A stretch of DNA of 64,000 nt from Candidatus Yanofskybacteria bacterium (lineage in GTDB: Bacteria > Patescibacteriota > Minisyncoccia > 2-02-FULL-40-12 > IGHO2-01-FULL-4-A). Each line of letters opens with the position of its first letter. Within the stretch, counting starts at the first letter, position 1. Shown piece by piece: positions 7,256 through 64,000 of the stretch. The position numbers were made by a program, and so were the translations under genes. The stretch lies in assembly GCA_016185545.1 (NCBI GenBank), contig JACPNJ010000005.1, forward strand, positions 79,013-143,012, given 5' to 3'. The notes beneath the pieces were generated by a model. The model saw only the letters and a list, made by a program, of their open reading frames with translations, searched no databases and was not told the DNA's origin.

Positions 7256-7449
7256 GTTTATATGAGTCGTGGTATAATTTTCGTATGGTTATTTAATAAT
7301 TAAAATCGAGGGTAAAAATGAACGACACTGCTACTTTCACGAACCTAAACTTGCGGGGCTTTTCTATTTTTATAAACAGGCTGGGGCAAGTGGTTACCAA
7401 TTTTTATCTGTTGGCTTGAGCAGTAACAAATAAATGTTGATTTTTGAAG

Positions 7450-7592
7450 TTTTTCGCTGATAAAGAAAATTGGGACGGAGCGGAGCCCCGAGCGTAGCGA
7501 GGGGCGTAGCGTAAGGGGTACGATTTTTTTATCTAGAAAAACGAGAAAATCAACATATTATTTGTACTGCGAGGACACCTGATAAAAATTGG
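7450..7592. repeat. left copy of a perfect 143-bp inverted repeat flanking mreC-mreB
   Basis: Exact reverse complement of 9583..9725 by direct comparison; contains the GC hairpin region ggagcggagccccgagcgtagcgaggggcg. Confidence 0.9.
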
Positions 7593-7604
7593 AAACCACT
7601 TGCC

Positions 7605-8438
7605 TCATTTTAATATCACAAACAAACTGGAACCGAGGGAGGGGTCGAAGATGGGTTTAGCGGAAACGTTTTTGAAAAGGGTACTGGATGAGGATTCAAC
7701 CTTGATGATTTTGGCAACGAGCAGGGCCTCCGGCAAACCGTCAAGACCACTGGTAACAATTGTTTCGCCCTCTCTAATTTCATCGCTATTAGCCACAAGG
7801 TTAAGCACCAGATTATTTTGTAATTCGCCTTTTGTTTCAACCAGTGTTCGCGATTCCTGGACTTGTCCAGCATCAGTTTGGGACGGCTCAAACTGATGCT
7901 GGACAAGTCCGCTAATTTTAATACGTGGATCATCAATGAGCAAAATCAAAGCCGAATCATCAAAAACCTGCTCCGTGATGCCAACCAAAATATTGCCTGT
8001 CGCTATAACTGGCATCTTTTTTTCAATGCCGTTCTTTACGCCTTTGTTAATTAATGCCGTTGAGGACAAAGCGCTTCTTTGTATATTAAAAATCCGCGCC
8101 AATAATAACGGCGAATCCAGCCGTTTCGCTACCCCTAGTTCTTCTCTCAAAAAATTATTTTCGCGTTTTAAACTTTCAAGTTCCGCTAATTGCCCGCGTA
8201 AAATATTATTCTCCTTATAAAATCTGGCATTATCATCAATAATCATTTTGGTTTTTAAATATCCGGAAGAATACCTTGAAAAATTTAGCAGATTGTCCGT
8301 CAAAAAAATACCAGGTTTTTCTGTAATTTTATAGACAAAATTCTGCAGAAAATTATCCGTTAAATAATTATTAAAAAAAACAACCCCAGCGACAATTAAA
8401 ATGACGGCCAGATAGTTTTTATAAAAATTACGAGTCAC
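7605..8438 (-). CDS. mreC: rod shape-determining protein MreC
   Basis: 277 aa; N-terminal TM segment, coiled coil (LRGQLAELESLKRENNFLREEL), C-terminal beta domain; downstream of mreB. Confidence 0.75.
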   Translation of the reverse strand: MTRNFYKNYLAVILIVAGVVFFNNYLTDNFLQNFVYKITEKPGIFLTDNLLNFSRYSSGYLKTKMIIDDNARFYKENNILRGQLAELESLKRENNFLREELGVAKRLDSPLLLARIFNIQRSALSSTALINKGVKNGIEKKMPVIATGNILVGITEQVFDDSALILLIDDPRIKISGLVQHQFEPSQTDAGQVQESRTLVETKGELQNNLVLNLVANSDEIREGETIVTSGLDGLPEALLVAKIIKVESSSSTLFKNVSAKPIFDPSLGSSLFVILK

Positions 8439-9523: not shown

Positions 9524-9582
9524 GGCAACAGTTTAACATAACAAAATTATTATTAATAATCAAAAATTACAGCTCGCCATTA

Positions 9583-9725
9583 CCAATTTTTATCAGGTGT
9601 CCTCGCAGTACAAATAATATGTTGATTTTCTCGTTTTTCTAGATAAAAAAATCGTACCCCTTACGCTACGCCCCTCGCTACGCTCGGGGCTCCGCTCCGT
9701 CCCAATTTTCTTTATCAGCGAAAAA
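9583..9725. repeat. right copy of the 143-bp inverted repeat
   Basis: Exact reverse complement of 7450..7592. Confidence 0.9.
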
Positions 9726-9799
9726 GCCAATTGATAAAAATTGATAATGGCTCACTCTCATATTTTTACGGGAATATGAAGTCCCAAAAGACACTATGG

Positions 9800-10320
9800 T
9801 TCGGCTTACCTTAAAATTTTGTGACAAAACAAAAACCCCTCGAATGGCCAAACTCGAGAGGTTGGTTCAAAAACAGGTGGCTACCACGACCATTACTTTT
9901 GGCCAAGTAATGGTCAGCCCGCTCAATGGCTACAGGCTCTCCCGGCCTGCCCATCGCTTCCACATGCCCGTCATGCCTTTCTCCTTTCGTTTCGGCATGC
10001 AGTTTGTCAGCCAGTAGGATCACCTTGCGGGTGATGCTGGCTGGGGTGGAAATATTAAGAGTCAAATTGACTCTCGGAGGAACGCGAGAGTCAGGAACAC
10101 TACTGGTCCGGCAACTCCTTCATCGTTACTCCTTTCGTAACGGGTTATTGGAAACCCGAGCGGAGCCAGCCTATCATGTGATCGGCGTTCCGCTGCTCGG
10201 GAGGAGATGCCGTGATAGCAGACGTTGGCGGACACGCAGTCCGCTCTGATGACGTCTTCACGGCAAGCAGAGTCGCCTTTTCTCATTTCCTCGGCAACCC
10301 AGCAAACAGTCCCGAAAGAT
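9800..10320. other. GC-rich, hairpin-dense non-coding island; possible structured RNA of unknown class
   Basis: Local GC is clearly above flanks; only short overlapping ORFs on both strands with non-protein-like composition; many perfect local stems (gactctcg/cgagagtc, cgttac/gtaacg, gcgga/tccgc). Confidence 0.35.
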
Positions 10321-10541
10321 GTAAAGAACTAAGTCTTTTTATAATTAATTTCGGGACTTTTTGCTAGGCTCGAATCAAATTCAAGTTCAATTTAAGAAAA
10401 GTGGCTGGAGAAAGCTGTTTTTTAGCAACAGGTATGCGTCCCCCCGGCGCATCACTATTGCCAATCAACCCTCCCCAGCAAAATACCAACAAAATCAATG
10501 AATTATTGGCATTTTGCTAGGTTCAACTTATTACATATTCA

Positions 10542-11825
10542 TTATAACAAAATATCTACTATATTGTCAAGCTCTATTAGTTTGGCATCTTTCTCACCCC
10601 TCCTTTTTACTTCAACACTCTTCTTTTGTAAAGTCTTCTCACTGACGACAAATCGCAACTGACAGCCAATTAAATCGGCATCGGTAAACTTCTCACCGGC
10701 AGATTTGTCCATCCGGTCATCATACAAAACTTCTATGCCGCTATGCAAGACCTTTTCATAAATTTCATCTCCAGATTTTTCCGTTCCTTCCAATGCCAAT
10801 AGATGAACCTTAAATGGCGCTACCGCTTCCGGCCAAATAATTCCCTCATCATCATGGTGTATTTCCACCAAAGCTCCCATAACTCGCCCCAAGCCGATAC
10901 CATACGAACCCATGATCACGAGATGCGACTCCCCTTTCTCGTCAACAAATTTCAAATCAAACGCTTTTGAATATTTATCACCCAACGGAAAAGTATTGCC
11001 GACTTCAATTGATTTGCGCTCTACTATTTTGCCTTTGCATTTCGGGCACTGGCCGTTGTTCATTAATTTTGAAATCTCCTTATTCTCCGCGTATTCGCAT
11101 TTATCACAAATAAAAATCGTATCCTCGCCGATATCGGCAAGCACTTGAAACTCATGGGTGTTCTCCGCGGTAAATGTCCCGCCAGCGGCTATGGTATAAA
11201 TTGCCTTCAGCCCGCAACGGTGAAAAATCTTATGATATGCTCCTTTCACATCTTCATAATATCGCCAAAGGTCATCTTCCGAGGCGTGGAAACTATACAG
11301 GTCTTTCATCATAAACTCCCGCCCGCGCAATAAACCGGACTTGGCACGCGGTTCGTTGCGGAATTTGGTTTGTATCTGGTAAGCGGCAAAAGGCAGGTCT
11401 TTGTATGAACTGACGAAACGCGAAGCAATCGCCGTCAACACTTCTTCATGAGTCCAACCCAAAACAAAATTACTTAGAGGCTCAACCTCGTAGAGGCTCA
11501 ACCTCGTGGAGGTTGAGCCTCTACGTACTGCATGATCATTGGCTATCTTGAATCCTACCTCAACTTCCCATCTGCCAGTAGCATCAAGATATTTTTTTTC
11601 AACCAACGCCGGCATAAACATTTCTATCCCGCCGATCTTGGCCATTTCTTCTCTGATAATGCCAGCAATTTTTTGCATCACTCGCCAGCCCAACGGTAAA
11701 AAAGTGTAAATTCCCGCAGAGTTTTTGTATATGAAACCGCCACGCTCGAGCAACTGCGCATTAACGCTTGTTTCATCTTTGGGATTCTCGCGGGTTGTTT
11801 TGGTAAAAAGTTGAGATAACTTCAT
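10542..11825 (-). CDS. proS: prolyl-tRNA synthetase
   Basis: Class II aaRS motifs, zinc-binding CDKC...CPKC, C-terminal anticodon-binding domain; start at MKLSQLF; carries an in-frame palindromic insertion. Confidence 0.88.
   Translation of the reverse strand: MKLSQLFTKTTRENPKDETSVNAQLLERGGFIYKNSAGIYTFLPLGWRVMQKIAGIIREEMAKIGGIEMFMPALVEKKYLDATGRWEVEVGFKIANDHAVRRGSTSTRLSLYEVEPLSNFVLGWTHEEVLTAIASRFVSSYKDLPFAAYQIQTKFRNEPRAKSGLLRGREFMMKDLYSFHASEDDLWRYYEDVKGAYHKIFHRCGLKAIYTIAAGGTFTAENTHEFQVLADIGEDTIFICDKCEYAENKEISKLMNNGQCPKCKGKIVERKSIEVGNTFPLGDKYSKAFDLKFVDEKGESHLVIMGSYGIGLGRVMGALVEIHHDDEGIIWPEAVAPFKVHLLALEGTEKSGDEIYEKVLHSGIEVLYDDRMDKSAGEKFTDADLIGCQLRFVVSEKTLQKKSVEVKRRGEKDAKLIELDNIVDILL
11474..11525. 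repeat. palindromic element family A (GAGGCTCAACCTC x2 plus inverted copy) inserted in frame in proS
   Basis: ttagaggctcaacctcgtagaggctcaacctcgtggaggttgagcctctacg translates on the minus strand to RRGSTSTRLSLYEVEPL within ProS. Confidence 0.85.
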
Positions 11826-11995
11826 TACTTTTATGATAACAAATTCGCGGCTTGGTGAATAATGCCTCATAGCACCGTCAAAAGAGTGGATTGTAAGGTT
11901 TGCGAGCAGTATAATAGTAAAACACTGCAAGCAAAATCCACGCTTTTGACGGAACGTAGCAACCTCGCTGGGGTTGCAAGTGGTGATAGGAGGCG

Positions 11996-14716: not shown

Positions 14717-15625
14717 CTAGGCTAGCGAAACGAGAAAATTTTCTAGAGCTAATCTCTGATTAAACTGCGGCTTGTTTATTACTTCGTATAAAACAAGCAG
14801 ATTTTTGAGAATCTTGTGGGTTTTGGGTTCGTTCAAGCGCATTCTTAAATAAAGCATCCAGTACAAAACTTTCTTAGGCAATTCAGCTTTGTTTTTTTCA
14901 TCGGTAAGTTTTTGGGCAATGGTTAGCCGCTCATTGATATCCGATTTAATCAAATACATCACTTCTTCAACCGATTCTTTAACTTCATCAAATGATTTTT
15001 CATCTATGATTTTTTTAATAAGCCCTATCCTACCGTTGGCAAAATCAGTCAAAAAATCAATTTTAGTTTTTGATAATTTAAAATCTGCCAAAAAAATTTT
15101 GATAACCGTTTGCGAATGTGGCTGAAACTTAATTTCCTGACAACGGGAAACTATGGTCGGCAAAAGCGACTCCGAATTAGCGGAAACAAGAATCAGGATA
15201 GACGATAAATTCGGTTCCTCTAGAACCTTCAATAGGGCATTCTGCGCTTCCACTGTCATCAAATAAGCATTATCAATAACCACAAATTTATACGGACTAG
15301 CGCTATAGGGACTTAACGAAATAAAATTTTTAATTTTGCGCACATCTTCAATGGCTATAGTCTGTCCGCTTTCGGAATTGGCCGAATTGACAAATAAAAC
15401 ATCCGGATTATTTAGAGGCTCAACCTCGTAGAGGCTCAACCTCGTAGAGGTTGAGCCTCTAAATAGACTTATTTTAAACAAATTCTGTACCAATTCCAAC
15501 GCAAATGTACGCTTACCTATCATGTCTTGGCCGGTAAAAAGATAGGCATGGCTTAATTGGCCATTTTTTATGACTGTTTCAAAAAAAAATTTATTTTTAT
15601 CAAAACCGATTGTATGCCAAGTCAT
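14717..15625 (-). CDS. holB: DNA polymerase III delta-prime-like clamp-loader subunit
   Basis: 302 aa AAA+ fold (LFTGQDMIGKRTFALELVQNL); 4-nt overlap with murG; carries family A palindromic insertion. Confidence 0.7.
   Translation of the reverse strand: MTWHTIGFDKNKFFFETVIKNGQLSHAYLFTGQDMIGKRTFALELVQNLFKISLFRGSTSTRLSLYEVEPLNNPDVLFVNSANSESGQTIAIEDVRKIKNFISLSPYSASPYKFVVIDNAYLMTVEAQNALLKVLEEPNLSSILILVSANSESLLPTIVSRCQEIKFQPHSQTVIKIFLADFKLSKTKIDFLTDFANGRIGLIKKIIDEKSFDEVKESVEEVMYLIKSDINERLTIAQKLTDEKNKAELPKKVLYWMLYLRMRLNEPKTHKILKNLLVLYEVINKPQFNQRLALENFLVSLA
15413..15464. repeat. palindromic element family A inserted in frame in holB (encodes RGSTSTRLSLYEVEPL)
   Basis: ttagaggctcaacctcgtagaggctcaacctcgtagaggttgagcctctaaa; near-identical to the proS copy. 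Confidence 0.85.
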
Positions 15626-30368: not shown

Positions 30369-30400
30369 TTCAATAACCAACCGCAGGCCTGCCCGCCGAA
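30369..30400 (-). promoter_or_regulatory. 5' leader hairpin cccgcc-TGCGCCGAGGCTTC-ggcggg upstream of the RNase J-like gene
   Basis: Same loop and opposing stem arms as the uvrB copy at 42553. Confidence 0.4.
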
Positions 30401-30564
30401 GCCTCGGCGCAGGCGGGAATTTTCTTTGTTTTAAGCTATTTTCCGTGCTGTGCATCCGTCAATTTGGTCAGATTATAGAAAATGTCATGTGGACAAAAAT
30501 TTGACAAATTATTACATGCATGCTAACCTTACGACAGAATCAACCAGTTTCTAAGGAGGTGGCT

Positions 30565-33732: not shown

Positions 33733-35007
33733 TTATGAAAGCAATTCCAAAACTATTTCTTTATCTGACCATGAAATCTTTTTCCCTCCAGCCACAGCCA
33801 TTAAATTCTCGGACCCCTTGCCGGTTATTACGACTATATCATCAACTTGAGCTAGAACTAAGGCTTTTCTGATTGCCTCTTTGCGGTCTAGAATTTTGGT
33901 ATAGTTTTCAGTTTGCGAGAACCCCGAAGCAATTTGTTCCAAAATTGCCTCGGGGTTCTCGTCATAAGGGTCCTCGTTCGTCAAAATCACCTCATTGCAA
34001 TATTTGGCCGCGATCTTGCCAAACTCAGGCCGCTTCCATTTGTCCCGACCGCCGCCGGCTGCCCCCAATACACAGATGAGTTTATTACGAGGTTCAACCT
34101 CAACAGAAATATGGGGTTGGTTTCTTAGGGTTTTGTAAACCAGTTCCAATGAATCCGGCGTGTGAGCATAATCAATAATTACATTAAAACCTTTCGGCGC
34201 ATGAATGATTTCCATTCTGCCTGGTATTGATTTGATTGAATTTAGCGACGCTACCGCTTTATTCATATCAAGATTATAAGCATGCGCTACGGCCAATGCC
34301 GCCAAGGCGTTATATTCGTTAAAATCCCCCAGCAATTTTAAGTTAAGTTTTTCATTTTTCGTTTTTAGCTTTTCACTTGTTATCATCCCCCATTTTTTGC
34401 CATATGTTACTTTGTGTTGCGCCGTAAAATTGGCAAATTTTTCAAAATACGGATCGTCAATGTTAAGTACGTGGATATTGCCAGTTTTCAGAAAAAGTTT
34501 CTGCTTGGCGGCCATATAATTTTCAAATGAGCCATGGCTTTCCAAATGTTCACGGTGCAAATTGGTAAAAACGGCACAATCAATTTTGACACCAGCCAGA
34601 CGATTTTGGACAATACCCTCTGAAGTGGCTTCGAGCACCACGTATCGACAACCGGCTTTTTTTGCCTGATATAAAAATTTCTGCAACTTGAGTCGCCCCG
34701 GCAAAGTCATTTTTAGCGTATTGGGCCATGTCCGTTCTTTTATCTTAAACCCGAGCGACCCCACTGCCGCCACCGACAGCCCCTGCTCCTCAAAAATCTT
34801 GCTTATCATATAAACCGTCGTTGATTTGCCCTTAGTCCCGGTAACTGCTATCACCCTCATCGCCTGCGACGGAAAACCATAAATCGCTGCCCCCAGCATT
34901 ACCAGCCCCCAATGATAAACCGGCTGTGCCAATTTAAAAATCCGCCGCGGTAACACGGCGCGCCCCAAACCTAGCAATTTGTTTAGTAATCGGTTCTCTT
35001 GAAACAC
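33733..35007 (-). CDS. Mur ligase family protein (MurE/MurF-like)
   Basis: VIAVTGTKGKSTT P-loop; Mur ligase middle and C-terminal domains. Confidence 0.6.
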   Translation of the reverse strand: MFQENRLLNKLLGLGRAVLPRRIFKLAQPVYHWGLVMLGAAIYGFPSQAMRVIAVTGTKGKSTTVYMISKIFEEQGLSVAAVGSLGFKIKERTWPNTLKMTLPGRLKLQKFLYQAKKAGCRYVVLEATSEGIVQNRLAGVKIDCAVFTNLHREHLESHGSFENYMAAKQKLFLKTGNIHVLNIDDPYFEKFANFTAQHKVTYGKKWGMITSEKLKTKNEKLNLKLLGDFNEYNALAALAVAHAYNLDMNKAVASLNSIKSIPGRMEIIHAPKGFNVIIDYAHTPDSLELVYKTLRNQPHISVEVEPRNKLICVLGAAGGGRDKWKRPEFGKIAAKYCNEVILTNEDPYDENPEAILEQIASGFSQTENYTKILDRKEAIRKALVLAQVDDIVVITGKGSENLMAVAGGKKISWSDKEIVLELLS

Positions 35008-40833: not shown

Positions 40834-41862
40834 TTAAAAAATTTTCCTGGCTAACCGGTAAACCAAATACCAAAATTTTGAAATCGGCAGGTCAAATGAG
40901 CCGGGGTATTCAATGGTATTGCCGCCCCAGCCGAGTTTGAAACGGGTAACGCCGGGCCATTTGCGCGGGTCAATACCCCAAAAATCATATCGTTTTAGAC
41001 CTTCCGCTTTTAATTGCTTCATTATGTGCCAGTGCAAGGCATAAGGAGCCATAAGTGCTCTGTTTTCGTAATCAGAAGCACCGTGTAAATAGTAACCAGC
41101 ATCGCCGTAAGTAAGAATTAAGGCCGTGGCGATCGGTTTGTCATGAGTTTTGTCGAAGGGTTTGTTGTTATGCTTGGCAAAATATAATTTGGTTTGAAGT
41201 CCGTTATAATCCAACAATTTTCTGTAATAGTCATCCGGGTGCGGATTAAATCTATCCCGTTTGGCGGTTTTTTTAAGCAATTTTAAGAAAGTTTCAACTT
41301 TTGCACGATATTCTGCACGACATGCGATGTCGTGCTTCTGCACGACATCGCATGTCGTGCAAGTTACCTCTTCGCCCACGATTATGCCACGTTTATCGGC
41401 AACACCGATATTGTAGCGGGTCTTGTGATGCATAGCCGCGAGTAATTCGTTTTCGCTTTTTGTTAAATCAACAACAACCGTCTTCGACGGTTGGATTTCT
41501 TTTTTTGATTTTTTAAAACCTGCCTCAACCAGCGCTTGGGCAATGCTATCAATAAGCGGTTCGGTTTTTATAAAAATTGACTTGCGTTTTTTGCTTTCTT
41601 CGCGCAACCACCTTACGAAATTCGCCACTGGATTCTTAAATCCGCCTATCATCTGATTGAAGTCAATCTCCGGCCCATGCGGTATATAAAGATAGCTTTT
41701 CCCAAACGGTAAATTGTGTTTAATTATTTTGGCGCTTATTACAGGAGGTTGAGCCTCTTTACTTAGAGGCTCAACCTCTAAGTTTTCCGGGTATTCCAAA
41801 ACCTCCCGCCCCAGCGATTTCTGAAATTTCGTCCATTCTCTTGACTGAAGAAATGAGGTCAT
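40834..41862 (-). CDS. FemAB-family peptidoglycan bridge-forming aminoacyltransferase
   Basis: LQSREWTKFQ N-terminus; YALHWHIMKQLKAEGLKRYDFWGI...FKLGWGG C-terminus; carries two different palindromic insertions. Confidence 0.7.
   Translation of the reverse strand: MTSFLQSREWTKFQKSLGREVLEYPENLEVEPLSKEAQPPVISAKIIKHNLPFGKSYLYIPHGPEIDFNQMIGGFKNPVANFVRWLREESKKRKSIFIKTEPLIDSIAQALVEAGFKKSKKEIQPSKTVVVDLTKSENELLAAMHHKTRYNIGVADKRGIIVGEEVTCTTCDVVQKHDIACRAEYRAKVETFLKLLKKTAKRDRFNPHPDDYYRKLLDYNGLQTKLYFAKHNNKPFDKTHDKPIATALILTYGDAGYYLHGASDYENRALMAPYALHWHIMKQLKAEGLKRYDFWGIDPRKWPGVTRFKLGWGGNTIEYPGSFDLPISKFWYLVYRLARKIF
41311..41360. repeat. palindromic element family C: 25-bp unit ttctgcacgacatgcgatgtcgtgc followed by its inverted-core copy, in frame in the FemAB-like gene
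   Basis: gcacgacatgcgatgtcgtgc is self-complementary except the centre; encodes TCTTCDVVQKHDIACRAE. Confidence 0.8.
41745..41783. repeat. family A palindromic element (GAGGTTGAGCCTC-N8-GAGGCTCAACCTC) in frame in the FemAB-like gene
   Basis: Encodes ..NLEVEPLSKEAQPP.. Confidence 0.8.
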
Positions 41863-42552: not shown

Positions 42553-42580
42553 CAAAATTCCCGCCTACGCCAAGGCTTCG
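42553..42580 (+). promoter_or_regulatory. 5' leader hairpin cccgcc-TACGCCAAGGCTTC-ggcggg 25 nt upstream of uvrB
   Basis: Same loop as 30369 and as the leader elements at 31596 and 60729. Confidence 0.4.
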
Positions 42581-42604
42581 GCGGGCAAGCAAACCATAAC
42601 ATAA

Positions 42605-59147: not shown

Positions 59148-59672
59148 CTAGTCTGATTCTTCGCCACACATTTCAGCGACGGCGGACAAAATTTCCTCGG
59201 GTATCGGAATCTTTTTACCAACCGGACTGACCCCGGGATACCGCCATGCGGATATTATCCGCATTTTTGGTTGCTGGTGGTTGGTTTCTAGTTTCTGGTA
59301 ATTTTTAAATTTTGCATTGCCATTTAAATTGATTCGCATGCGCTTTTCGTTAAGCGTATCCGCATCGTTTTGATTTTTGCCTGCCCCGCCGTTGGCGTAC
59401 GGCCTGGGTAATTTTGCTTGCCCCGTAGGGTCGCGAAGCGACTCCTTCGGGGAATTTTGAATTTCTTGAAACATCACCCATATCTCCTGTTTCTTGCTTG
59501 ATGTCGGCTGCATAACGGCTATAGTTTTGGGCGCAACTCCGTCTTCTCTCCTTTTGGGAAACCTGACGATCCTTTTTATCAAACTCTCTGATATCCCATA
59601 ATAAAGCATCTTGTCTTTGACATGATTAGTCCATTGGTATTTATCATTATCTTTCGGGAGGTTAAATCGCAT
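59148..59672 (-). CDS. DUF4258-like small protein split in frame by a ~75-aa repeat-derived insertion
   Basis: N-terminal YQWTNHVKDKMLYYGISESLIKRIV and C-terminal KMRIISAWRYP match DUF4258 ends; the middle carries element B peptide NSPKESLRDPTGQAK. Confidence 0.4.
   Translation of the reverse strand: MRFNLPKDNDKYQWTNHVKDKMLYYGISESLIKRIVRFPKRREDGVAPKTIAVMQPTSSKKQEIWVMFQEIQNSPKESLRDPTGQAKLPRPYANGGAGKNQNDADTLNEKRMRINLNGNAKFKNYQKLETNHQQPKMRIISAWRYPGVSPVGKKIPIPEEILSAVAEMCGEESD
59378..59470. repeat. palindromic element family B (ccccgtagggtcgcgaagcgactccttcgggg) plus partial duplicate
   Basis: Same 32-nt hairpin as in secA at 62633. Confidence 0.8.
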
Positions 59673-61492: not shown

Positions 61493-64000
61493 TTATCTCC
61501 CATGACATCTTTTATATTTTTTACCTGACCCACAAAAACATGGGGCATTCCTTCCTATTCTCGCATGGTCGAGAATGTTTGATGGCCGACTTGATTCTTG
61601 CTCCATTTGTTTTGAGACAGCTGACCGACTAACTGCCAAATCCTCACGTTTTTCTTCAATTGCAACAGTTTTTGGCTGTTGGACAAATCCAACCTTAAAA
61701 ATTAAACCCGCCACTTGCGCTCCAATGGCCTCCTGCAGTTGAGTGAACATTTTTTGGCCTTCTATTTTATATTCAACTAACGGATCGCGCTGGCCGTAAG
61801 CACGCAGGCGCACCGAGTCGCGAAGATACTCCATCTGTTCAAGATGATCAACCCACAGCTCGTCTATCACGCGTAGTAAAACCATTTTCTCAATATGTCT
61901 CATTGATTCCACGCCTGTTTGCTGTTCACGCTGAATATAAACTTCATCAATCAAACCATGCAGAAATTCGGATAATTTGCCTGGCCCATTCGATGAGTTC
62001 AGGTCAAGCTCTTGTGGTTTTGCGATTTCGTTTAATTTAGCGTGCAAATCGCCAACCATCGGCATCAGAGTTTTAACACTCTCGGCTATTTCTTCGGTAT
62101 TATATCCCCCCGTTTCGCTTAAAGCGTGGAATTGCATAATTTTATCAATATGTTCGTGAATATAATTATTTATTTTGTCCTTGACGCCTTCTCCCCCCAG
62201 TATTTCCTTGCGCAAACTGTAAATCGCGGTTCTGTGGCGATTCATTACATCGTCATATTCTAGGACGTATTTTCGGATATCAAAGTTGTTGCCTTCAATT
62301 TTGGATTGGGCTTGCTCTATGGCGCGGGAAACGAAACGGTTTTCAATAACATCGTCTTCGCTTACGCCAAGCCGATCCATCAAGTTTTTAAGACGATCGC
62401 CGCCGAATATGCGTACCAGCTCATCTTCGGTGGATACAAAAAACTGCGAAGAGCCCGTGTCGCCCTGCCGGCCGGAACGTCCACGCAATTGATTATCTAT
62501 GCGCCTTGCTTCGTGCCTCTCCGTCCCAATCACATGTAAACCTCCTAATTCCTTTACTCTTTTATTTTCTTCCTCCCAATTTTTATATTCTTCATTTAAA
62601 AGTTTATCTTCTTCAATTTTAAATTTTGCCTGCCCCGTAGGGTCGCGAAGCGACTCCTTCGGGGAATTTTGAATTTTGAATTTGCTAGGCGCATGCCCGC
62701 CGAGCATGATATCAACACCCCTGCCGGCCATATTGGTTGCCACCGTAACAGCGCCGAGCCGACCGGCTTGAGCAATAATTTCACCCTCTTGTTCGTGGTT
62801 TTTGGCATTTAAAACTTTGTGCGGTATACCTTCACGGTTGAGATGCACCGATAAAAGTTCATTTTTAATAATCGCCGCCGTACCAACAAGTACCGGTTGA
62901 CCTTTAAGATGCCGCCCCTTGATTTCGGCAACAATTGCTCTGAATTTACCCGCTTCTGTTTTATATATACGATCGGGTAAATCAGCACGTATCATTTGTT
63001 TGTTGGTGGGAATAGTAACGACATCCAGTTTGTAAACCTTGTGAAACTCTTCAGCTGATGTCTGCGCCGTGCCGGTCATACCGGTAAGTTTTTTATACAA
63101 GCGAAAATAATTTTGGAAAGTAATCGTGGCATAAGTTCGGGATTCTTTCTGGACATATACCCCCTCTTTGGCTTCAATCGCTTGATGCAATCCCTCCGAC
63201 CATCGCCGCCCCGGCATTAAACGGCCGGTAAATTCATCTACTATGATTACTTCACCGTCTTTTACAACGTAATCCTTGTCGCGGTGGAAAAGAATTTGCG
63301 CTTTCAACGCCTGTTCAAGATGGTGAACATAACGAGTACCGCCTTCCTCGTAGATGTTTTTGAGATTCAGCACGCTTTCAACTTTTTCAATGCCTTTTTC
63401 GGTAATTGACACGGCTTTCAATTTTTCATCAACATTATAGTCTTCGTTTTCGTGGAGACGTGGAACAATTTTGGCAAAAGTTTCGTAAAGCTTAGTTGAA
63501 TCAGAATCCGGTGCAGAAATAATTAGCGGGGTTCTGGCTTCATCTATTAAAATGGAGTCAATTTCGTCAACAATGGCATAATTATGCCCTCGGGTCTGCG
63601 CAACTTGCCCCAATTCATATGCCATGTTGTCCCGTAAATAATCAAAACCGAATTCGTTATTGGTCCCATAAGTAATGTCGGCTTCGTATGCTTCTCGCCT
63701 AGTAACCGGACGCAGAAATTCATGAACAACCCTGAATGCCCCTGTTTCATCGCGTATTTCGTCTAATTTTCGTGATTTATCATTTTCTTTTTCACTTTTG
63801 AATTTGAAATTATCATTTTGAATTTTGAATTTTGAATTTTGAATTTCGCTATGCAGTGGATCATAAACGTAACTCATTTCATGGTTCAAACATCCGACAT
63901 TCATTCCGAGAAGATGGTATATCTGCCCCATCCATGCCGCATCGCGCCTTGAGAGATAATCGTTCACGGTAACTATGTGGACCCCATTAGAAGTAGCCGC
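61493..64000 (-). CDS. secA: preprotein translocase ATPase SecA (N-terminus beyond window edge)
   Basis: DEAD motor, GGLHVIGTERHE, C-terminal zinc finger CFCGSGKKYKRCHG; ORF open to position 64000. Confidence 0.92.
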   Translation of the reverse strand, partial: AATSNGVHIVTVNDYLSRRDAAWMGQIYHLLGMNVGCLNHEMSYVYDPLHSEIQNSKFKIQNDNFKFKSEKENDKSRKLDEIRDETGAFRVVHEFLRPVTRREAYEADITYGTNNEFGFDYLRDNMAYELGQVAQTRGHNYAIVDEIDSILIDEARTPLIISAPDSDSTKLYETFAKIVPRLHENEDYNVDEKLKAVSITEKGIEKVESVLNLKNIYEEGGTRYVHHLEQALKAQILFHRDKDYVVKDGEVIIVDEFTGRLMPGRRWSEGLHQAIEAKEGVYVQKESRTYATITFQNYFRLYKKLTGMTGTAQTSAEEFHKVYKLDVVTIPTNKQMIRADLPDRIYKTEAGKFRAIVAEIKGRHLKGQPVLVGTAAIIKNELLSVHLNREGIPHKVLNAKNHEQEGEIIAQAGRLGAVTVATNMAGRGVDIMLGGHAPSKFKIQNSPKESLRDPTGQAKFKIEEDKLLNEEYKNWEEENKRVKELGGLHVIGTERHEARRIDNQLRGRSGRQGDTGSSQFFVSTEDELVRIFGGDRLKNLMDRLGVSEDDVIENRFVSRAIEQAQSKIEGNNFDIRKYVLEYDDVMNRHRTAIYSLRKEILGGEGVKDKINNYIHEHIDKIMQFHALSETGGYNTEEIAESVKTLMPMVGDLHAKLNEIAKPQELDLNSSNGPGKLSEFLHGLIDEVYIQREQQTGVESMRHIEKMVLLRVIDELWVDHLEQMEYLRDSVRLRAYGQRDPLVEYKIEGQKMFTQLQEAIGAQVAGLIFKVGFVQQPKTVAIEEKREDLAVSRSAVSKQMEQESSRPSNILDHARIGRNAPCFCGSGKKYKRCHGR
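62624..62690. repeat. family B palindromic element inserted in frame in the secA variable linker (encodes NSPKESLRDPTGQAK)
   Basis: Direct sequence identity to 59420..59452. Confidence 0.8.
63815..63847. repeat. (ATTTTGA)x4 heptamer array in the secA C-terminal linker
   Basis: Encodes KFKIQNSKFKIQN. Confidence 0.8.

Follow-up and report, generated by a model that had tools for sequence, protein, structure and literature searches.

Palindromic elements in frame in three genes of a Candidatus Yanofskybacteria genome, probable REP/REPIN-like repeats of a RAYT-type transposase system

REPINs and their REP-associated tyrosine transposases (RAYTs) are regarded as extragenic elements that reside for long periods in mainly proteobacterial genomes, and the recognition and cutting of hairpins in single-stranded DNA by the E. 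coli RAYT and by IS608 TnpA constitutes established biochemistry. As described for E. coli and Pseudomonas, the repetitive extragenic palindromic (REP) units are short imperfect palindromes, often set as inverted pairs that fold into one long hairpin; the Y1/HUH transposase gene bears an identical palindrome on both sides, and the system persists mostly by vertical descent accompanied by homogenisation within the genome (4ER8; PMC3116915, PMC3337134, PMC5581495). The flanking of a transposase gene by the genome's own palindromic repeat is the defining REP–RAYT arrangement (PMC3733652, PMC3116915). Intragenic REPs tagged with GTAG or CGTC have been reported by Di Nocera et al. (2013) for O. terrae, for R. 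conorii, where they correspond to RPE-4/6, and for several proteobacteria; REP monomers and dimers lie in frame in tRNA synthetase and replication/repair genes, where they encode short peptides (PMC3733652). GTAG repeats are described there for Proteobacteria, Cyanobacteria, Chloroflexi, and the PVC group but not for the Candidate Phyla Radiation (CPR), and the survey contains no core shared across phyla, no frame-bias analysis, and no REP copies within a RAYT open reading frame (ORF) (PMC3733652). Among the Rickettsia palindromic elements (RPEs), RPE-1 measures 100–150 bp and has no known enzyme, and RPE-4/6 carry the CGTC tag (PMC3733652). Here, we describe a short palindromic element present at three sites in a 64-kb stretch of Candidatus Yanofskybacteria DNA (the window, i.e., the whole stretch analyzed), where it lies in frame in proS, in a holB-like gene, and in a FemAB-like gene. 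The three sites are probably (at a rough probability of 0.7) copies of a REP/REPIN-like repeat of a RAYT-type Y1/HUH transposase system, a class to which they are assigned because the same palindrome directly flanks a RAYT-type Y1/HUH gene in related genomes.

The repeat unit is a short nested palindrome with the core GAGGYTSARCCTC, usually extended to a 21-nt arm (e.g., CTTAGAGGYTSARCCTCTAAG), and copies consist of one, two, or three arms. In the window, the 13-mer GAGGCTCAACCTC or its reverse complement occurs exactly eight times (11477, 11493, 11509(-), 15415, 15431, 15447(-), 41745(-), and 41766), against 0.03 occurrences expected by chance; none of 100 dinucleotide-preserving shuffles matched this count. 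The occurrences form three clusters, each within one long minus-strand ORF and all in frame (Table 1), which bears out the original prediction of a repeated palindromic module in three unrelated genes; its coordinates also hold, save for a shift of one to two bases at the holB copy. The proS element—TTA-GAGGCTCAACCTC-GTA-GAGGCTCAACCTC-GTG-GAGGTTGAGCCTC-TACG on the plus strand—reads on the gene strand as RRGSTSTRLSLYEVEPLS. As had been claimed, the proS and holB copies are nearly identical and encode the same peptide: identity amounts to 96% over 55 nt, RGSTSTRLSLYEVEPL is present in both ORFs, and each copy comprises three 16-nt units, two direct and one inverted. The FemAB copy is laid out differently, with a full 21-nt palindromic arm (CTTAGAGGTTGAGCCTCTAAG) followed by TAAA and a partial arm. 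Hairpins are strong at all three sites (DNA -16 to -23 kcal/mol, mRNA -27 to -39 kcal/mol; z -6.7 to -10.5). In keeping with REPINs, inverted arms combine into one long hairpin with stems of 13–20 bp and loops of 3–8 nt; beyond the inverted pair the proS and holB copies of the window possess a third, direct arm, and elements in other genomes mostly have two arms. [quoted passage not shown] Rfam at gathering thresholds identified one tRNA only in the window and had no match at the elements. A lone GAGGTTCAACCTC in a Mur-ligase-like ORF (Table 1) could be the remnant of a single arm or a match by chance.

Table 1. Palindromic elements of the window and the genes that hold them
Feature	Position	Strand	Remarks
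proS, prolyl-tRNA synthetase	10542..11825	-	insert between conserved GRW and LGWTHEE motifs
proS ORF	10542..11930	-	holds cluster 1
holB-like clamp-loader subunit (DNA polymerase III delta-prime); holB-like ORF	14717..15625	-	holds cluster 2; insert between Walker-A helix and NPD(V/I)L motif
FemAB-family peptidyltransferase; FemAB-like ORF	40834..41862	-	holds cluster 3; insert N-terminal, after LGREVLEYPE
Three-unit palindromic element in proS	11474..11525	-	hairpin energy DNA -21, RNA -37 kcal/mol; without counterpart in 411-aa ProS orthologs
Three-unit palindromic element in holB-like gene	15412..15462	-	reads RGSTSTRLSLYEVEPL; DNA -23, RNA -39 kcal/mol
Rearranged copy in FemAB-like gene	41744..41782	-	14-bp stem; CTTAGAGGTTGAGCCTCTAAG-TAAA-GAGGCTCAACCTCC on gene strand, read LEVEPLSKEAQPP
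Lone GAGGTTCAACCTC in Mur-ligase-like ORF (33733..35007)	34089..34101	-	read EVEP(R), just ahead of conserved LICVLGAAGGGRD segment

A CPR-like host had been considered as a possibility from the sequence, and the window HolB is indeed 100% identical to a protein (HYX20_02590) of a Candidatus Yanofskybacteria metagenome-assembled genome (MAG); the best ProS matches come from Yanofskybacteria and other Parcubacteria. The typical ProS ortholog has 411 aa and no insert (alignment A1), its GRW–LGWTHEE interval reading, e.g., GFEAKGKEEKKAGFVLGW, and extra residues at this site occur only in the window and its nearest relatives (~80% identity). The alignment with P. aeruginosa ProRS (5ucm) is gapped at the same site. 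The FemAB insert of ~13 aa is missing from 17 of 17 aligned orthologs (alignment A2). In HolB, the site is empty in P0397, P0407, P0410, P0424 (= L118), and P0465 (alignment A4), and it is occupied by (R/S/G)GSxxKYLxxEPLS in P0392–P0396, P0398, P0399, P0401, P0405, and P0409; E. coli tau has a cysteine-rich segment at the aligned position. The peptide had been thought to be lineage-specific. This is true insofar as distant orthologs are devoid of the insert, but in relatives at 64–82% protein identity the same proS, holB, and FemAB sites are occupied by variant copies.

Other short palindromes and peptides were seen in the same host genes and elsewhere in the window. The FemAB-like gene harbors a second, unrelated nested palindrome at 41314–41361 (-), TGCACGACATGCGATGTCGTGCA-GAAG-CACGACATCGCATGTCGTGCA, with a 22-bp stem (DNA -33 kcal/mol), which occurs once in the window, reads in frame as TCTTCDVVQKHDIACRAE, and is missing from all aligned FemAB orthologs; in style it resembles a palindrome beside the RAYT-like gene of locus L079, and it may represent a second REP family. 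The HolB of L118 (7203–8084) displays an extra PSAGFAG between AQKLAD and EKNKTEL that is found in no other aligned HolB ortholog and may be another short GC-rich palindrome insertion. GC-rich palindromes (GCCTGCCCGCCGAAGCCTCGGCGCAGGCGGG, TGCCCCGTAGGGTCGCGAAGCGACTCCTTCGGGG) are repeated in intergenic DNA of the window at 30387–30423, 42554–42590, 59410–59464, and 62622–62676, and in-frame peptides of other Parcubacteria ProS orthologs in alignment A1 (LARRSLGEGG, LPSEASSEG, GLPAKASLREASAG, and GEGLSAQAG) resemble a translation of such a palindrome. Other palindrome families may thus also invade genes in Parcubacteria.

The variant copies in relatives bear on how the element is maintained. L118 is a Yanofskybacteria MAG (JACOZV010000001) in which a 21-kb stretch has the same gene order as the window. 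Its proS site reads CTTAGTGGTTCAACCACTAAG-TCTGA-CTTAGTGGTTGAACCACTAAG and that of L120 CTTAGAGGCTCAGCCTCTAAG-TTAGA-CTTAGAGGCTGAGCCTCTAAG; L121 and L122 possess partly decayed versions, and the window has the three-unit form. In the L118 element, GAGG is changed to GTGG and CCTC to CCAC in all four half-arms, and in L120 both arms are altered with pairing preserved (GAGGCTCAGCCTC with GAGGCTGAGCCTC). Independent point mutations are not expected to yield changes coordinated in this way, which point to replacement or conversion by the current repeat variant of the respective genome. The FemAB ortholog L144, from a metagenome, has the unusual layout of the window copy at the same site. The derived three-unit interior common to the proS and holB copies of the window is missing from the orthologous holB copies of L145 (one arm) and L157 (two arms). 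These data can also be read as old, vertically inherited insertions that are immobile and owe their similarity within a genome to gene conversion or hairpin template switching rather than to transposition, an account that we consider unlikely. It agrees with the occupation of the same proS, holB, and FemAB sites in relatives at 64–82% identity and with a derived interior shared by the proS and holB copies of the window only, as conversion would yield. However, the elements are found in dozens of unrelated genes across loci, the presence of the HolB insert is patchy among equally distant orthologs, and the association with a transposase would require a separate explanation; since conversion might be driven by a RAYT, this account also overlaps with the REP/REPIN–RAYT reading. 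Next to no weight is given to an assembly or sequencing artefact, in favor of which nothing was found: the same element occupies the same gene sites in independent NCBI, ENA, Logan, and JGI assemblies.

Beyond the window, a scan of 185,579 species-representative genomes with the pattern GAGGYTSARCCTC-N(1-10)-GAGGYTSARCCTC revealed at least 117 loci, against ~0.2 expected by chance according to our own arithmetic. The hosts among the matches listed are mostly Patescibacteria (Moranbacteria, Saccharibacteria, and Parcubacteria groups including Yanofskybacteria), joined by some Elusimicrobia, Bdellovibrionales, and Thermodesulfovibrionia; the direct-repeat matches L012, L019, L033, and L081 are ordinary proline-rich protein repeats. 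The exact window hairpin with its 3-nt loop had no match in metagenomes. In place of a census of the three-unit form with its 16-nt spacing, the 21-nt arm was scanned, which yielded 46 metagenome loci with single and double arms in many different ORFs; the single arms, 21 nt or 7 codons long, read LRGSxSK or LExxPLS. Several palindrome copies per contig are seen in related MAGs. A scan of 2.9 million viral contigs gave no match and hence no evidence of phage carriage. In the metagenome contigs L124, L139, L147, L148, and L152 a conserved stretch of ~40 nt (ttaggttgtaaaataaggagattttgaggtt...) comes after the 21-nt arm, a hint that the arm is part of a larger composite intergenic element assembled round it. 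Repeats scattered over many genes might also serve as a DNA uptake signal for natural competence, on which CPR bacteria rely, and uptake sequences elsewhere likewise occur within genes, with a frame bias and often arranged as inverted pairs. This possibility appears highly improbable, given that known uptake sequences occur about once per kb as opposed to three sites per 64 kb here, and that a palindrome with a variable number of arms, flanking a transposase gene, is unlike a non-palindromic 9–12-mer.

The link to a transposase emerged from the neighborhood of the repeats. ORFs of at least 90 aa were extracted from the 163 loci listed (genome and metagenome) and clustered, and the most recurrent neighbor family, present at 15 of these loci, is a protein of ~210 aa featuring the motifs YHIYNRG, CLNPNH(F/Y)H, LFQGR(F/Y)K, and SAYINLN. 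It matches Pfam Y1_Tnp (IS200-like transposase) with 33–44 bits at a cut-off of 23, and the HUH histidines as well as the YINLN tyrosine are invariant in an alignment of 13 members. A database search with this RAYT-like protein retrieved 2,408 relatives at E <= 1e-5, some of them in Candidatus Yanofskybacteria, Moranbacteria, and Sungbacteria and some carrying the JGI name "REP element-mobilizing transposase RayT"; searches of the PDB by sequence, with a single sequence and with a profile, found no meaningful match. No tnpB was seen to adjoin the RAYT-like gene. Palindromes lie within tens of bases of both ends of the transposase ORF in at least seven independent loci. In L056, two-arm hairpins stand on both sides of the gene, at distances of 24 nt (upstream) and 19 nt (downstream), and in L098, L146, L156, and L160/L161 single palindromic arms are located at both ends. 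In L169, a Yanofskybacteria contig from the same study as L118, the RAYT-like gene (336–1001) is preceded by CTTAGTGGTTSAACCACTAAG at 196–221 and 290–316, and a further CTTAGTGGTTSAACCACTAAG at 987–1013 overlaps its stop codon; these flanks bear the same GTGG variant (GTGG...CCAC) as the proS insert of L118. About 9% of the pattern-selected loci include a RAYT-like gene. If a single such gene has two to four flanking copies, the number per genome can be estimated, though not counted, at some tens, in agreement with the three sites in the 64 kb of the window.

Repeats are also found within the transposase itself. The RAYT-like ORFs of CPR bacteria hold repeat-derived peptides (LRGSTSK, LGGSTSK, LSGSTTKL, and similar) at two conserved positions (alignment A3, P0121–P0215), and in L169 two palindrome copies lie in frame inside the ORF (511–541 and 789–815); either the repeat entered early and persisted, or it has a role there. 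In-frame copies make RAYT-like ORFs targets as well, and this is one of the arguments for a selfish palindrome of the RPE type that has no dedicated enzyme and spreads by an unknown or host-recombination route, the RAYT-like gene being merely a favored landing site. The in-frame behavior is identical to that of RPEs, i.e., of selfish palindromic repeats whose inserted peptides are tolerated by the essential proteins of a reduced genome, and no RAYT is encoded within the 64-kb window. Such an origin nevertheless has only a small chance of being correct. Palindromes at both ends of the transposase ORF in several independent loci are the geometry of REP–RAYT systems and not that of random landing, and the transposase is the most recurrent neighbor of the repeat. 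Furthermore, there is no likeness in sequence or length to RPE-1, and the CGTC tag of RPE-4/6 is lacking (PMC3733652). The match to Rickettsia RPEs put forward in the original prediction therefore stands for the in-frame behavior but not for family membership: the elements described here are 21–52 nt long, linked to a RAYT-like gene, and not frequently flanked by CGTC, a distinction drawn by length and tag rather than by alignment to an RPE consensus.

The position of the repeats relative to genes differs from what is expected of REPs, in that the window copies at all three sites are intragenic. Among the genome loci listed, 126 of 268 13-mers (47%) are located in stop-free ORFs of at least 200 aa, as compared to 76% of random positions in the same loci; copies are thus depleted in genes, yet far from excluded. 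Within long ORFs, arms with a central C read G-S-T/A-S 42 times, E-x-Q-P 21 times, and R-x-x-L 12 times (chi-square p = 8e-5), and arms with a central G read E-x-E-P 39 times and R-L-x-L 12 times (p = 2e-4). Two-arm elements that leave two frames open adopt GSxS/ExEP in 27 cases and the other frame in 6 (two-sided binomial ~3e-4, our own arithmetic). In the frame counts, the two arms of one element are not independent, and the loci were picked by the search pattern itself. A rule that the spacing between arms equals 2 mod 3 in genes was discarded, as intragenic spacings are distributed 19/19/11 over residues 2/1/0 and intergenic ones are richer in 2; the pooled test is unsuited because the required residue depends on arm order, and the frame used (27 versus 6) is the correct measure. 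A two-arm element, its second arm being the first in reverse complement, reads alike on both strands and specifies the same peptide in one phase in either orientation. From the reading frames we infer that the segments are probably translated and subject to selective filtering rather than bypassed or removed by splicing.

The same data could be taken to indicate a module with a function for the host, either a hairpin in the mRNA by which translation of essential genes is slowed or regulated, or a common peptide tag that some factor recognizes, retained by selection and not merely tolerated. In support of this notion, the stability of the mRNA hairpins is very high (-27 to -39 kcal/mol), the arms co-vary such that pairing is kept (GAGGCTCAGCCTC/GAGGCTGAGCCTC in L120; GTGG/CCAC in L118), and a reading-frame bias exists. 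Many orthologs, however, work without the insert, the same sequence resides in intergenic DNA and in many unrelated proteins, and both frame bias and co-variation are equally expected of a selfish hairpin under purifying selection; a host function is accordingly viewed as decidedly unlikely.

How a REP/REPIN–RAYT system could produce this distribution can be outlined by analogy with known enzymes. A single-copy RAYT-like Y1/HUH transposase encoded elsewhere in the genome would generate the family and keep it homogeneous in trans. Like the E. coli RAYT and IS608 TnpA, it would recognize the folded hairpin in single-stranded DNA and cut at the hairpin foot, and copying or conversion of repeat units would follow without target-site duplication. 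As compact CPR genomes offer little intergenic space, copies would come to lie in coding sequences, where they would survive only if their length is a multiple of three (21 nt = 7 codons; 48 nt = 16 codons), if the frame gives a hydrophilic, loop-compatible peptide (R/G-G-S-T-S ... E-V-E-P-L/P), and if they reside at a variable region or loop of the protein. The peptides would then be translated and tolerated, and the source genome would be expected to carry one or several RAYT-like genes flanked by GTAGAGGCTCAACCTC units, whose product moves or converts the copies.

Several observations weigh against the REP/REPIN–RAYT reading. First, tblastn for the RAYT-like gene in the 64-kb window and the 21 kb of L118 returned noise only. 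Second, the sole NCBIfam match of the RAYT-like protein, NF047646 (REP-associated tyrosine transposase, RAYT), scores 27–44 bits and thus below the equivalog cut-off of 80. Third, although 4ER8 (E. coli RAYT in complex with a REP hairpin) is the top PDB fold match of an AlphaFold2 model (mean pLDDT 68), the IS608 and ISDra2 transposases follow close behind and TM-scores are only 0.36–0.45, so that the fold class is supported and the RAYT and IS200/IS605 TnpA sub-families are not separated. Fourth, GTAG/CTAC marks the borders of units in the proS and holB copies of the window and is not general in the family: among the tags flanking 359 13-mers in the loci, TTAG (19%, a share inflated by the metagenome search pattern), TTGG (10%), and ATGG (10%) lead, and GTAG is outside the top 14. 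Fifth, the sharing of the three sites with relatives implies mostly vertical inheritance rather than demonstrating present-day mobility; homogenisation of the copies could result from gene conversion alone. The dependence and selection inherent in the frame counts count on the same side. Finally, a surface loop had been expected for the ProS insert, but exposure is no more than suggested by the AlphaFold2 model because its pLDDT is <50 across residues 75–122, which include the insert.

With respect to described systems, the family shares with REP/REPIN–RAYT the short imperfect palindromes and their inverted pairs, a Y1/HUH gene with the identical palindrome on both sides (here in related genomes), and mostly vertical persistence with homogenisation within genomes. 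It differs in that about half of the copies lie in frame inside long ORFs instead of being extragenic, that the arm is nearly self-complementary (a nested palindrome) and exactly 7 codons long, and that the transposase belongs to a divergent clade in CPR/Patescibacteria hosts. With IS200/IS605 elements (IS608, ISDra2) and their miniature derivatives, it has in common a Y1/HUH fold acting on single-stranded-DNA hairpins and the absence of target-site duplication. In contrast to these, it is the repeat itself, in place of separate left and right ends, that flanks the transposase gene, and a miniature IS is far longer than these repeats. In-frame monomers and dimers that encode short peptides in known genes have precedents outside CPR, so that in-frame intragenic REPs as such are already known (PMC3733652). 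What looks new is that the palindrome is nested and its arm 7 codons long, that a high fraction of the copies is intragenic and shows a marked frame preference, that the core is conserved across several phyla, and that repeat peptides occupy two conserved transposase positions. The supposition that such elements had not been described in CPR agrees with full-text literature searches, in which no report of them or of REP–RAYT systems in CPR/Patescibacteria was found; CPR/Patescibacteria go unmentioned in a phylogenomic survey of this transposase superfamily, and literature queries with the 13-mers and with the peptides GGSTS and EVEPP led to unrelated papers only.

A bolder view, tentative and on balance doubtful, holds that all copies descend from one ancient, horizontally shared REPIN–RAYT lineage in CPR, perhaps extending to some Elusimicrobia, Bdellovibrionota, and Nitrospirota. 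Evolution in this lineage would have made the palindrome translatable (7 codons, orientation-independent, G-S-T-S / E-V-E-P) for life inside essential genes of genomes nearly devoid of intergenic DNA, copies at conserved positions of the RAYT gene would serve as an autoregulatory or self-recognition site, and the repeats would continuously remodel loops of essential proteins rather than being inert junk. Irrespective of this view, the REP/REPIN–RAYT reading would place a REP-type system in ultra-small CPR genomes with about half of its copies in genes, among which are those of a tRNA synthetase, a clamp-loader subunit, and a cell-wall enzyme. Should this be confirmed, a hairpin-cutting Y1 transposase becomes a mechanistic candidate for RPE-like in-frame selfish DNA, the spread of which has stayed unclear, and part of the odd lineage-specific insertions in CPR proteins would be accounted for. 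Confirmation would also caution those who annotate genomes or predict structures that GSTS/EVEP segments of 7 to 16 residues derive from repeats. The insertions further amount to a natural experiment in the loop tolerance of essential proteins.

Two further features were noted in the window. Inverted hairpin elements of ~200 nt stand on either side of mreC–mreB (7381–7608 and 9562–9765), their arms at 7450–7595 and 9580–9725 being 99% complementary; one copy scores with a plant miRNA-precursor model on account of its long hairpin, and the pair looks like a MITE. The gap of ~0.8 kb between mreB and proS (9725–10541) contains short overlapping ORFs only, with no Rfam match at E <= 0.1, and a similar ~0.8-kb gap separates proS and mreB in L118.

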